Positions 1 through 4,845 of a stretch of DNA of 4,845 nt are shown here, one piece after another; position 1 is the stretch's first letter; each line of letters begins with the position of its first letter. Both the position numbers and the translations under genes were made by a program. This stretch comes from a virus (taxonomy: Duplodnaviria; Heunggongvirae; Uroviricota; Caudoviricetes): IMG/VR virus record IMGVR_UViG_2529292833_000009; one strand, 5' to 3'. The notes beneath the pieces are model-generated. The model was given only the letters and a program-made list of their open reading frames with translations, was not told the origin of the DNA and did not search any database.

Positions 1-582
1 GACCTTCGTGTGAAAACGGGGGCTGAAGCCATCCGCGCACTGGCCACACAGCTCCCGGCGTTTCGTCAGAAACTGAGCGACGGCTGGTATCAGGTACGGA
101 TTGCCGGGCGGGACGTCAGCACGTCCGGGTTAACGGCGCAGTTACATGAGACTCTGCCTGATGGCGCTGTGATTCATATTGTTCCCAGAGTCGCCGGGGC
201 CAAGTCAGGTGGCGTATTCCAGATTGTCCTGGGGGCTGCCGCCATTGCCGGATCATTCTTTACCGCCGGAGCCACCCTTGCAGCATGGGGGGCAGCCATT
301 GGGGCCGGTGGTATGACCGGCATCCTGTTTTCTCTCGGTGCCAGTATGGTGCTCGGTGGTGTGGCGCAGATGCTGGCACCGAAAGCCAGAACTCCCCGTA
401 CACAGACAACGGATAACGGCAAACAGAACACCTATTTCTCCTCCCTGGATAACATGGTTGCCCAGGGTAATGTTCTGCCGGTTCTGTACGGTGAAATGCG
501 CGTGGGGTCACGCGTGGTTTCTCAGGAGATCAGCACGGCAGACGAAGGGGATGGTGGTCAGGTTGTGGTGATTGGTCGCTGA
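1..582 (+). CDS. I: Tail assembly protein I, 5'-truncated by the window edge (C-terminal ~194 codons present)
   Basis: The frame is open from base 1 (gac ctt cgt gtg aaa..., translating DLRVKTGAEAIRALATQLPAFRQKLSDGWYQVRIAGRD...) to TGA at 580..582. The translation matches my recollection of lambda gpI essentially residue for residue. The GTG at 10 in the ORF track is an internal codon, not the start. It contains a Gly/Ala-rich hydrophobic stretch (GAAAIAGSFFTAGATLAAWGAAIGAGGMTGILFSLGASMVLGG). Gene J follows 59 bp downstream, as in lambda. Confidence 0.9.
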   Translation, partial: DLRVKTGAEAIRALATQLPAFRQKLSDGWYQVRIAGRDVSTSGLTAQLHETLPDGAVIHIVPRVAGAKSGGVFQIVLGAAAIAGSFFTAGATLAAWGAAIGAGGMTGILFSLGASMVLGGVAQMLAPKARTPRTQTTDNGKQNTYFSSLDNMVAQGNVLPVLYGEMRVGSRVVSQEISTADEGDGGQVVVIGR

Positions 583-641
583 CCTCTCAGTAAATATCAA
601 TACGGTTCTGACGAGTCGCTTACGTTTATGGAGCATGACGA

Positions 642-2267
642 ATGGGTAAAGGCAGCAGTAAGGGGCATACCCCGCGCGAAGCGAAGGACAACCTGAAGTC
701 CACGCAGCTGCTGAGTGTGATCGATGCCATCAGCGAAGGGCCGGTTGAAGGTCCGGTGGATGGATTAAAAAGCGTGCTGCTGAACAGTACGCCGGTGCTG
801 GACACTGAGGGGAATACCAACATCTCCGGTGTCACGGTGGTGTTCCGTGCCGGTGAGCAGGAGCAGACACCGCCGGAGGGGTTTGAATCCTCCGGCTCCG
901 AGACGGTGCTGGGTACGGAAGTGAAATATGACACGCCGATCACCCGCACCATTACGTCTGCAAACATCGACCGTCTGCGCTTTACCTTCGGTGTGCAGGC
1001 ACTGGTGGAAACCACCTCAAAGGGGGACCGGAATCCGTCGGAAGTCCGCCTGCTGGTTCAGATCCAGCGTAATGGTGGCTGGGTGACGGAAAAAGACATC
1101 ACCATTAAGGGCAAAACCACCTCGCAGTATCTGGCCTCGGTGGTGGTGGGTAACCTGCCGCCGCGCCCGTTCAATATACGGATGCGCAGGATGACGCCGG
1201 ACAGCACCACAGACCAGCTGCAGAACAAAACGCTCTGGTCGTCATACACCGAAATTATCGATGTGAAACAGTGCTACCCGAACACGGCACTGGTCGGCGT
1301 GCAGGTGGACTCGGAGCAGTTCGGCAGCCAGCAGGTGAGCCGTAATTATCATCTGCGCGGGCGTATTCTGCAGGTGCCGTCGAATTATAACCCGCAGACG
1401 CGGCAATACAGCGGTATCTGGGACGGAACGTTTAAACCGGCATACAGCAACAACATGGCCTGGTGTCTGTGGGATATGCTGACCCATCCGCGCTACGGCA
1501 TGGGGAAACGTCTTGGTGCGGCAGATGTGGATAAATGGGCGTTGTATGTTATCGGCCAGTACTGCGACCAGTCAGTGCCGGACGGCTTTGGCGGCACGGA
1601 GCCGCGCATCACCTGTAATGCGTACCTGACCACACAGCGCAAGGCGTGGGATGTGCTCAGTGATTTCTGCTCGGCGATGCGCTGTATGCCGGTATGGAAC
1701 GGGCAGACGCTGACGTTCGTGCAGGACCGGCCGTCGGATAAGGTGTGGACCTATAACCGCAGTAATGTGGTGATGCCGGATGATGGCGCGCCGTTCCGCT
1801 ACAGTTTCAGCGCCCTGAAGGACCGCCATAATGCCGTTGAGGTGAACTGGATTGACCCGAACAACGGCTGGGAGACGGCGACAGAGCTTGTTGAAGATAC
1901 GCAGGCCATTGCCCGTTACGGTCGTAATGTCACGAAGATGGATGCCTTTGGTTGTACCAGCCGGGGGCAGGCACACCGCGCCGGGCTGTGGCTGATTAAA
2001 ACAGAACTGCTGGAAACGCAGACCGTGGACTTCAGCGTGGGTGCCGAAGGGCTTCGCCATGTACCGGGCGATGTCATTGAAATCTGCGATGATGACTATG
2101 CCGGTATCCGCACCGGCGGGCGCGTGCTGGCGGTAAACAGCCAGACCCGGACGCTGACGCTCGACCGTGAAATCACGCTGCCATCTTCCGGCACCACGCT
2201 GATAAGCCTGGTTGACGGGCAGGGGAGTCCGGTCAGCGTGGAGGTCAGTCCGTCACCGACGGCGTGA
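642..2267 (+). CDS. J: J N-terminal fragment (541 aa as it stands; truncated by the first frameshift)
   Basis: ORF-track entry 642..2267. Lambda J-like sequence runs up to ...GSPVSVEV, after which the frame 0 tail SPSPTA* is out-of-frame read-through following a 1-bp deletion near 2246. Confidence 0.85.
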   Translation: MGKGSSKGHTPREAKDNLKSTQLLSVIDAISEGPVEGPVDGLKSVLLNSTPVLDTEGNTNISGVTVVFRAGEQEQTPPEGFESSGSETVLGTEVKYDTPITRTITSANIDRLRFTFGVQALVETTSKGDRNPSEVRLLVQIQRNGGWVTEKDITIKGKTTSQYLASVVVGNLPPRPFNIRMRRMTPDSTTDQLQNKTLWSSYTEIIDVKQCYPNTALVGVQVDSEQFGSQQVSRNYHLRGRILQVPSNYNPQTRQYSGIWDGTFKPAYSNNMAWCLWDMLTHPRYGMGKRLGAADVDKWALYVIGQYCDQSVPDGFGGTEPRITCNAYLTTQRKAWDVLSDFCSAMRCMPVWNGQTLTFVQDRPSDKVWTYNRSNVVMPDDGAPFRYSFSALKDRHNAVEVNWIDPNNGWETATELVEDTQAIARYGRNVTKMDAFGCTSRGQAHRAGLWLIKTELLETQTVDFSVGAEGLRHVPGDVIEICDDDYAGIRTGGRVLAVNSQTRTLTLDREITLPSSGTTLISLVDGQGSPVSVEVSPSPTA

Positions 2268-2370
2268 AGGTGAAAGTGAGCCGTGTTCCTGACGGCGTTG
2301 CGAATACAGCGTTGGGGGCTGAAGCTGCCGACGTGCGCCAGCGCCTGTTCCGCTGCGTGAGTATCCGTGA

Positions 2371-4035
<1,665 letters not shown>

Positions 4036-4053
4036 ATTTTATAACCCAGAACG

Positions 4054-4080
4054 GGCGTCAGAAATGACGCCTTTTTTATT
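4054..4080 (+). terminator. Rho-independent terminator downstream of J
   Basis: Perfect 7-bp stem GGCGTCA (4054..4060) and TGACGCC (4065..4071) around a GAAA loop, followed by TTTTTT (4072..4077). It lies 19 bp after the J stop codon. Confidence 0.7.
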
Positions 4081-4101
4081 GCAGAAAAGCGAGAGGTAAT
4101 T

Positions 4102-4701
4102 ATGCGTAAACTTTATGCCGCCATTTTGTCCGCAGCCATTTGTCTGGCCGTATCCGGTGCGCCTGCATGGGCGTCTGAACATCAGTCCACGCTGAGCGCG
4201 GGGTATCTTCATGCCCGGACGAACGTTCCCGGCAGTGATGATCTGAACGGGATTAACGTGAAATACCGTTATGAGTTTACGGACACACTGGGGATGGTGA
4301 CGTCGTTCAGCTATGCAGGAGACAAGAATCGCCAGCTGACCCGTTACAGCGATACCCGCTGGTATGAAGATTCCGTGCGTAACCGCTGGTTCAGCGTGAT
4401 GGCGGGGCCGTCTGTACGCGTGAATGAATGGTTCAGCGCGTATGCGATGGCGGGTGTGGCTTACAGCCGTGTGTCGACTTTTTCCGGGGATTATATCCGC
4501 GTAACTGACAATAAGGGGAAAACGCACGATGTGCTGACCGGAAGTGATGACGGTCGCCACAGCAACACGTCTCTGGTGTGGGGGGCTGGCGTGCAGTTTA
4601 ACCCGACCGAATCCGTGGCCATTGATGTCGCTTATGAAGGCTCCGGCAGTGGTGACTGGCGCACTGACGGGTTCATCGTGGGTGTTGGTTATAAATTCTG
4701 A
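4102..4701 (+). CDS. lom: Lom-family outer membrane beta-barrel protein (Ail/Lom/PagC/Rck family), divergent allele of lambda Lom
   Basis: ATG at 4102 is preceded by GAGAGG at 4091..4096. A signal peptide is predicted (MRKLYAAILSAAICLAVSGAPAWA, cleavage before SEHQ). It shares motifs with recalled lambda Lom (GINVKYRYE, SVMAGP, SAYAMAGVA) and a near-identical C-terminal strand ending in the aromatic terminal residue typical of OM beta-barrels (DVAYEGSGSGDWRTDGFIVGVGYKF). Its position between J and stf matches lambda. Confidence 0.88.
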   Translation: MRKLYAAILSAAICLAVSGAPAWASEHQSTLSAGYLHARTNVPGSDDLNGINVKYRYEFTDTLGMVTSFSYAGDKNRQLTRYSDTRWYEDSVRNRWFSVMAGPSVRVNEWFSAYAMAGVAYSRVSTFSGDYIRVTDNKGKTHDVLTGSDDGRHSNTSLVWGAGVQFNPTESVAIDVAYEGSGSGDWRTDGFIVGVGYKF

Positions 4702-4728
4702 TTAGCCAGGTAACACAGTGTTATGACA

Positions 4729-4754
4729 GCCCGCCGGTTCAGGCGGGCTTTTTT
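4729..4754 (+). terminator. Rho-independent terminator downstream of lom
   Basis: Perfect 7-bp stem GCCCGCC (4729..4735) and GGCGGGC (4742..4748) around loop GGTTCA, followed by TTTTTT (4749..4754). It lies 28 bp after the lom stop codon. Confidence 0.7.
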
Positions 4755-4765
4755 GTGGGGTGAAT

Positions 4766-4845
4766 ATGGCAGTAAAGATTTCAGGTGTACTGAAAGACGG
4801 CACAGGAAAACCGGTACAGAACTGCACAATCCAGCTGAAAGCAAA
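4766..4845 (+). CDS. stf: Side tail fibre protein Stf, N-terminal 26 codons only (3'-truncated by the window edge)
   Basis: ATG at 4766 is preceded by a G-rich stretch (GTGGGG, 4755..4760). The translation MAVKISGVLKDGTGKPVQNCTIQLKA matches the recalled N-terminus of lambda Stf (orf-401). Its position immediately downstream of lom matches lambda. Confidence 0.75.
   Translation, partial: MAVKISGVLKDGTGKPVQNCTIQLKA

Follow-up and report, generated by a model that had tools for sequence, protein, structure and literature searches.

The lom gene between J and stf of a lambda-like Escherichia coli prophage: a common version of a known accessory gene, bordered by two predicted terminators

What kind of gene lies between J and stf in this lambda-like tail region, is it transcribed on its own as the classic layout of a moron would imply, and what could its product do for the phage or for the lysogen? 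We addressed these questions on a stretch of 4845 bases, hereafter the window, which corresponds to the distal part of the tail genes in a lambda-like siphovirus or prophage. Its gene order, I-J-lom-stf, is that of lambda and of annotated E. coli prophages, and the features discussed below are collected in Table 1. An earlier sequence-only reading of this DNA had recognized a divergent lom allele, had taken it for a classic moron insulated by terminators on both sides and had proposed it as the most likely lysogenic-conversion candidate of the window. Our analysis supports the identification: with a probability that we estimate at about 0.85, we are dealing with lom from a lambda-like E. coli siphovirus prophage, in its common, non-lambda version. 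The spacer between J and lom (4036..4101) measures 66 nt and the gap between lom and stf 64 nt. At the right edge, relatives annotate the start of stf as a prophage tail fiber N-terminal domain protein. From about position 2500 to its end the window is identical to E. coli B27. As a separate observation, the window J displays five single-base deletions that are absent from every relative compared; for this part of J, around 2245..2376, a sequencing error or a genuine pseudogenisation may be considered.

Table 1. Position of the features described in the 4845-base window
Feature	Position	Strand	Remarks
Gene I (tail assembly), 3′ part	10..582		
J (tail-tip gene)	642..4035		Stop codon 4033..4035
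J, 3′ part	2401..4035	+	Pfam Ig_J, Phage_Tail_Tip, Ig_GpJ_C; receptor-binding C-terminus of the ‘A8’ (OmpC-using) type
TATAACCC motif	4040..4047	+	Just 3′ of the J stop; from spacer comparison
Upstream intrinsic-terminator-like hairpin	4053..4080	+	Stem 4053..4072, loop GAAA, T-run TTTTTTATT
lom leader TTTTTATTGCAGAAAAGCGAGAGGTAATT	4073..4101	+	Shine-Dalgarno GAGAGG at 4092..4097
lom coding sequence	4102..4701	+	199 aa plus stop
Lambda-shared segment	4630..4845	+	Last 23 lom codons, intergenic region, terminator, stf start
Downstream intrinsic-terminator-like hairpin and T-run	4728..4754	+	Stem 4728..4749; ends 11 nt before the stf start codon
stf (side tail fibre), first 26 codons	4766..4845	+	Ends at the window edge; Pfam phage_tail_N positions 1-26, E 1.2e-11

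The 199-aa open reading frame matches the Pfam family Ail_Lom (PF06316) over its full length (1-199 of 199, E 1.1e-118, 394.6 bits for a cut-off of 23) and PHROG 108, ‘Lom outer membrane protein’, with 358 bits. Among PDB sequences, it matches lambda Lom at 7e-48, and OmpX and Ail at about 1e-17. Its translation starts with a predicted signal peptide (residues 1-24) in which a basic N-terminus is followed by a hydrophobic core and an AxA site; cleavage is expected after AWA, between MRKLYAAILSAAICLAVSGAPAWA (ending in SGAPAWA) and SEHQ. It terminates with GVGYKF, whose final Phe corresponds to the aromatic end of outer membrane proteins. We infer an eight-stranded antiparallel beta-barrel fold from homology to the solved chains of Lom, OmpX and Ail; the AlphaFold2 model of the window Lom, built from a shallow alignment of 20 sequences, was of no use in this respect (mean pLDDT 33).

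The likeness to Ail, Rck and OmpX extends over the whole mature protein and includes the common motifs GINVKYRYE and C-terminal GVGY[KR]F; an Ail-family protein of Y. pestis is about 31% identical to the window Lom. Unlike these proteins, however, the window Lom has longer loops and is phage-borne, not chromosomal or plasmid-borne. The best NCBIfam match is Rck (NF011777, 114.3 bits, E 5e-33), below its equivalog cut-off of 258, and OmpX (NF006917) is matched with 97.5 bits and E 8e-28, below its cut-off of 176. By these profile scores, the window Lom falls in a clade paralogous to Rck and OmpX and is the equivalent of neither.

Lambda Lom (NP_040601, 206 aa; PDB 9wso chain C) belongs to the same family, occupies the same place between J and stf and is flanked likewise by hairpins followed by T-runs. 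Over 187 aligned residues the two proteins share 45% identity, and their last 23 residues are identical, in line with the near-identical C-terminus noted by the sequence-only reading. Identity to lambda Lom is unevenly distributed: it amounts to 42% in the signal peptide block, to 17%, 19% and 24% in the segments aligning with the OmpX extracellular loops L1, L2 and L3 respectively, to 50-76% in the membrane and periplasmic blocks and to 100% in the last 23 residues. The putative loops were assigned by alignment with OmpX together with the published OmpX topology. Compared with lambda Lom, loop 1 is shorter by 8 residues and the signal peptide is a different one.

At the DNA level, identity to lambda, followed in 30-nt windows, rises to about 90-100% from about 4612-4640 and stays so through the terminator and the stf start, which places a mosaic junction at about 4612..4640. 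From about 4630 to the window end the DNA is about 97% identical to lambda, and lom is therefore mosaic. The window lom is a recombinant, with its last 23 codons and everything downstream lambda-like. Exchanges of this kind are also visible among close relatives, where the signal peptide, loop 1 and loop 2 behave as interchangeable cassettes and some relatives carry a lambda-like loop 1 on a window-like protein.

How unusual is this version? We found the variable core of the window lom (4102..4640) in 4667 of the 5426 complete E. coli genomes searched, with a median of 2 copies and a maximum of 13. For lambda lom, the corresponding core was recovered from 100 of these 5426 genomes; in 98 of the 100 the identity was at least 99%, and several of the listed carriers are laboratory or commercial strains (DE3 lysogens, K-12 derivatives). 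In the phage collection, the lambda core is found at 99% identity or more in 21 records, the four shown including lambda, HK630 and a DE3-derived phage. The window lom is 100% identical in DNA to genes annotated WP_001230362.1, among them lom of E. coli B27; in the 100%-identical genomes the annotation is Ail/Lom family outer membrane beta-barrel protein, with WP_001230362.1 in two. At an identity of at least 80%, an 856-bp region is shared by 213 phage records, of which Stx1 and Stx2 phages as well as BP-4795 are examples; many phage records are 97-99% identical over it and keep the J-lom-stf order together with the two hairpins. The family models tell the same two versions apart, scoring the window Lom above lambda Lom (394.6 vs 182.4 bits for Pfam, 358 vs 249 for PHROG).

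Among Lom versions it is thus lambda that is the outlier. The description of the window lom as a divergent, distinct allele or mosaic stands in that it is different from lambda lom and mosaic with respect to it; ‘divergent’ holds relative to lambda only, and the version itself is the common one. As it occurs in about 86% of the complete genomes of E. coli, what we report is the correct re-identification of a textbook accessory gene, already known and not new. There is nevertheless a consequence for the use of lambda as reference: because lambda Lom is an atypical version, what has been concluded from it on adhesion, on association with LamB and on exclusion of lambda-vir may not hold for the common E. 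coli version.

Three explanations of lom, two of them on what its product does and one on how it is expressed, have to be weighed. According to the first, Lom binds the porin used by its own J and, chiefly late in infection, makes it harder for sibling phages to adsorb, the porin being LamB for lambda and OmpC for the phage of the window; the divergent loops would then reflect a different porin partner. We hold this for possible but would not favour it outright, and the broader idea of a role in phage exclusion rather than in virulence is equally tentative. In lambda, overexpressed Lom strongly protects cells against lambda-vir and not against T7, for which superinfection exclusion was proposed (PMC12366544). 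The PDB entry 9wso contains lambda Lom together with maltoporin, whose sequence is that of the LamB-J complex 8xcj, as identified by chain names only; a paper on this Lom-LamB entry was not found in the literature. Recent work thus points to a phage-exclusion and receptor-related role for lambda Lom (PMC12366544; PDB 9wso).

The neighbouring J offers a second line of evidence. Lambda J binds LamB, whereas the window J is of the OmpC-binding A8 type: its residues 125-544 align to ‘A8 gpJ 713’ of PDB 9wca, with 100% identity in the receptor-binding part, and A8 gpJ was deposited together with OmpC in 9wcb. The A8 gpJ domain, which uses OmpC, comes from a natural E. coli prophage and served to retarget lambda (PMC11338833); in the supplements of that paper, the peptides of J receptor-domain types A-D, sought for the type of the OmpC-using variant 1A2, were not found. 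Moreover, HK022 carries between J and stf the gene cor, annotated as a superinfection-exclusion moron, and it is mainly in the putative extracellular loops that the window protein departs from lambda Lom. Against these points, a Lom version at 95% identity or more adjoins at least four J receptor-domain types in the 84 loci compared, and the variants with a lambda-like loop 1 adjoin A8-like J and not LamB-type J. A strict coupling between the Lom version and the J receptor-domain type was rejected on these two grounds. In addition, Lom at lysogen levels does not exclude lambda-vir (PMC12366544), and none of the PADLOC defence models matches Lom.

In its most specific form, the common Lom version would be a receptor-masking protein matched to OmpC-using lambdoid phages and directed against the porin recognized by the adjacent J; on the present comparison of J and Lom types we consider this rather doubtful, less probable than the general proposal. 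Cor blocks FhuA, and if the specific form is true, the accessory region downstream of J, occupied by lom here and by cor in phages that use FhuA, would as a rule encode a protein blocking the receptor on which the phage itself depends. Receptor masking would then also explain why several intact lom copies are found in most E. coli genomes.

A second explanation, which we judge somewhat unlikely, makes of Lom an adhesin or serum-resistance protein of the lysogen, comparable to Ail, Rck or PagC and expressed from its own prophage promoter. It draws on membership in the Ail/Lom family, on Rck, ‘resistance to complement killing’, as the best NCBIfam match (E 5e-33) and on the fact that lom is intact in most E. 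coli genomes, often in multiple copies. For lambda Lom, a positive effect on adhesion to buccal epithelial cells has also been reported (Vica Pacheco 1997, as cited in PMC3594210 and PMC1151598). Yet the scores remain under the equivalog cut-offs (114 vs 258 for Rck; 97.5 vs 176 for OmpX), the functional loops are the least conserved parts of Lom, and no promoter is visible, as detailed below. Furthermore, serum resistance of lambda is attributed to bor and not to lom (PMC1151598). The link to adhesion and serum resistance made by the sequence-only reading was overstated, amounting to family resemblance and one report on lambda.

The third explanation concerns expression and depends on the hairpins bordering lom. 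A terminator scan of 3800..4845 returned 3 sites, compared with 1.1 +/- 1.0 in shuffled sequences. The upstream stem comprises 8 pairs with the tail TTTTTATT, the downstream one 8 pairs, 7 of them G-C, with the tail TTTTT. On folding, the upstream hairpin gives -14.7 kcal/mol (z -3.8) and the downstream one -18.2 kcal/mol (z -3.1). Both are predicted intrinsic terminators with a canonical G+C stem followed by a T-run. The possibility that the upstream hairpin works as a terminator of the minus strand was discarded, as by eye no T-run follows it on that strand.

For the upstream hairpin, comparison of related loci provides further support. The 84 loci with J upstream of lom yielded 21 distinct spacers. 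Variants of the stem include GGGCGTCA/TGACGCC, GGGCACCA/TGGTGCC, GGGCGCCA/TGGCGCC and GGCACCT/AGGTGCC, and in one spacer the loop GAAA is replaced by TTTC. When 20 distinct spacers were aligned, 93% of the cells in the stem were paired, compared with 35-59% in slid registers. Three of the 8 pairs change on both sides (G-C/A-U, C-G/U-A and A-U/U-A), and the covariation score was reached by none of 500 shuffles; since the spacer sequences are related and recombining, this covariation is supportive rather than a proof. In lambda, the same place is taken by a hairpin that differs in sequence and has TTTTATT after it. The downstream hairpin hardly varies and is conserved in more than 80 loci; that of lambda differs in the loop and by one G-C to G-U change which keeps the stem.

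Around the upstream hairpin, two other segments are conserved. A T[A/T]AACCC core right after the J stop is kept beside different J types, and the bases between this core and the hairpin vary. The leader TTTTTTATTGCAGAAAAGCGAGAGGTAATT is nearly invariant in the intact spacers of the window version, being identical in 16 of 17 variants and lacking a single base in the remaining one; a few of its bases are changed in the variants that have a lambda-like loop 1, and the leader is partly conserved in lambda. No known RNA element was found in the lom leader or in the 3′ region by an Rfam scan of 3800..4845 at E<=1, which returned only chance-level Trp_leader and SNORD94 hits, far under their gathering scores.

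Is there a promoter from which lom could be transcribed on its own? No sigma-70 consensus site was found on either strand of 3800..4845. A relaxed matrix scan of 3850..4110 gave as best site 5.3 bits, under the median best of 7.5 bits in shuffles, so that promoter prediction brought nothing in favour of a promoter upstream of lom. The hexamer TATAAC (4040..4045), taken as a -10 element and combined with any -35 at a distance of 15-19 nt, never scores above -0.7 bits; it was judged an unlikely -10 in view of this missing -35 and of the absence of the conserved final T, relatives keeping T[A/T]AACCC instead. From the end of the upstream T-run to the lom ATG there are about 20 nt, which include the Shine-Dalgarno sequence, and therefore no promoter fits between the presumed insulator and lom. 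A non-consensus or activator-dependent lom promoter is still compatible with these scans. The literature offered nothing usable on a mapped lom promoter or transcript. In practice, the promoter for lysogenic expression of lom cannot be located from the sequence, and the upstream terminator leaves no room for it.

These results allow a more nuanced view of lom as a moron, a term under which it is counted in the literature (PMC3594210, PMC7067206). Two hallmarks of morons are present. lom is an extra gene between two neighbours: HK97 has J directly followed by stf, without lom, and the J-lom-stf order is found in lambda and in more than 200 phage records. Its accessory status agrees with the ability of lambda to form plaques without lom (PMC10695390). 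A predicted intrinsic terminator also lies directly downstream of lom and is conserved in related loci and in lambda. Two other hallmarks, an own promoter directly upstream and a distinct nucleotide composition, were not detected: the GC content is 53-57% in lom, 46-50% at the 3′ end of J and 56-65% in the 5′ part of J, with no distinct island. The classic promoter-gene-terminator layout is thus not visible at the window lom.

The sequence-only reading was accurate on the anatomy of the locus: the full-length Ail_Lom match and the gene order bear out a lom gene between J and stf as in lambda, scan and folding recover both hairpins within one or two bases of where it had placed them, the 66-nt spacer is exact, and our scans concur that no good sigma-70 promoter is apparent and that TATAAC has no convincing -35. 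Of the classic moron that it proposed, the accessory slot, the downstream terminator and the use of the term in the literature hold good; for independent transcription, no promoter was detectable.

HK022 cor and HK97 gp22, lambdoid morons in the Juhala/Hendrix definition, are similar to lom as accessory genes lying among conserved tail genes and present in some phages only. Like lom, HK022 cor has a terminator directly after the gene, just before the next late gene. However, upstream of cor an AT-rich region of about 100 nt could hold a promoter, whereas the 66-nt spacer of lom consists mostly of the terminator hairpin.

What is established about late transcription in lambda and about the OmpX/Ail family allows a mode of action to be proposed for lom as an accessory gene bordered by terminators. 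During lytic growth, lom would be read mainly within the late operon by Q-modified polymerase, which would ignore both hairpins. In the prophage, unmodified polymerase would halt at both: the upstream hairpin would block stray transcription out of J, and the downstream one would terminate any lom transcript ahead of stf, keeping stf silent. The low level at which lom is reported to be expressed in lambda and phi24B lysogens would have to arise from a weak start that does not follow the consensus and is located at the hairpin or ahead of it, near the conserved TATAACCC; the hairpin would therefore be part of the 5′ leader of the lom mRNA. Export of the protein would rely on Sec and its insertion on BAM, giving an eight-stranded barrel with its three long, variable and fast-evolving loops facing outward. 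Lom would in this manner alter the cell surface, the likeliest benefit being to hinder adsorption of related phages, or adhesion.

The third explanation, which we consider unlikely, would reduce lom to a plain late gene, the hairpins being stabilising or processing elements or leaky pause sites in the late mRNA and not insulators. It accords with the outcome of the promoter scans, with the similar GC content of lom and neighbouring genes, with the tight intergenic placement of the hairpins, which leave about 20 nt and 11 nt respectively to the start codon that follows, and with a strong rise of Lom late in infection, as PMC12366544 relates citing Liu 2013. On the other hand, both hairpins possess the canonical G+C stem and T-run of terminators, several studies report expression of lom in lambda lysogens, where lom and bor are expressed from the prophage (PMC7067206, PMC1151598), and expression of the phi24B lom orthologue is uncoupled from induction, being similar in lysogenic and induced cells (PMC3342100). 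Lastly, a 173-aa open reading frame runs antisense to the spacer and lom (4039..4560); it has no Pfam match and was taken as spurious.

In its C-terminal receptor-binding domain, J shows 100% identity to the natural portion of A8 gpJ (PDB 9wca/9wcb), a domain that serves to retarget lambda particles to OmpC (PMC11338833) and that has been deposited together with OmpC (PDB 9wcb). On these grounds, the receptor of the window phage would most likely be OmpC and not LamB. LamB also figures in the structural record of lambda Lom. The entry PDB 9wso, matched via the lambda lom locus (L001:4966-5583), contains two lambda Lom chains and, as read from the chain names, apparently a maltoporin trimer; the LamB-J complex 8xcj has a maltoporin of identical sequence, and the two entries together hold six maltoporin chains. 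In the literature searched, no paper describing 9wso was found.

In the window, J is split over three reading frames, whereas the neighbouring lom is intact. The frame breaks correspond to five single-base deletions that intact relatives lack (positions ~2245, ~2301, ~2312, ~2333 and ~2376), and no long homopolymer is present at any of the five sites. Among 4213 complete E. coli genomes having the segment 2245..2376, none shares these deletions, the best match being 97.8%. Either the sequence is in error locally, or J has become a pseudogene very recently.

The J-stf interval accommodates variable cargo. In HK97 (L124:4990-5290) it is empty, J and stf being separated by a 207-nt gap, whereas in HK022 (L125:3640-5060) it holds cor and two unannotated ORF-length stretches, with an AT-rich region upstream. 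In the latter phage a terminator is located directly before stf, and its tail, TTTTTTATTGCC, resembles TTTTTTATTGCAG found 3′ of the upstream hairpin in the window.

Copies of lom found elsewhere are not all intact. Several Shigella copies and one from E. coli are broken by frameshifts or premature stops (L010, L012, L027 and L031, on Shigella flexneri and E. coli ECMA0423 chromosomes), and these disrupted copies retain an intact upstream hairpin and leader. Such lesions in the coding sequence point to the decay of some prophage lom copies. A different situation is met with genome contigs matching the window Lom at 45% identity (L014-L025 and others). They match the lambda lom region exactly, several have a length of ~48.4 kb, and the assemblies they come from bear labels such as Pseudomonas, Shewanella, Bradyrhizobium, Neobacillus and Kitasatospora. 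Contamination of those assemblies by lambda control DNA is the almost certain source.

Features of the window around J and lom
Feature	Position	Remark
Alternative I-J intergenic sequence	584..621	two 13-nt indels vs E. coli B27
J, three reading frames	642..2267, 2264..2476, 2401..4035	
J receptor-binding domain	~3540..4035	
173-aa ORF antisense to lom	4039..4560	minus strand
Perfect 6+1+6 palindrome TAACAC-A-GTGTTA	4711..4723	between lom stop and downstream terminator

Three further features complete the list. The antisense ORF gave no match in a Pfam search; its existence probably reflects no more than the composition of the lom coding strand. Lambda and almost all related loci have the palindrome in identical form; chance alone would give about one perfect palindrome of this 6+1+6 type in a sequence of the size of the window. 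As for the region between I and J, it carries an inserted IS66 element (tnpA-tnpB-tnpC) in the closest genomes (99.2% identity), for example that of O114:H49 90-9280.
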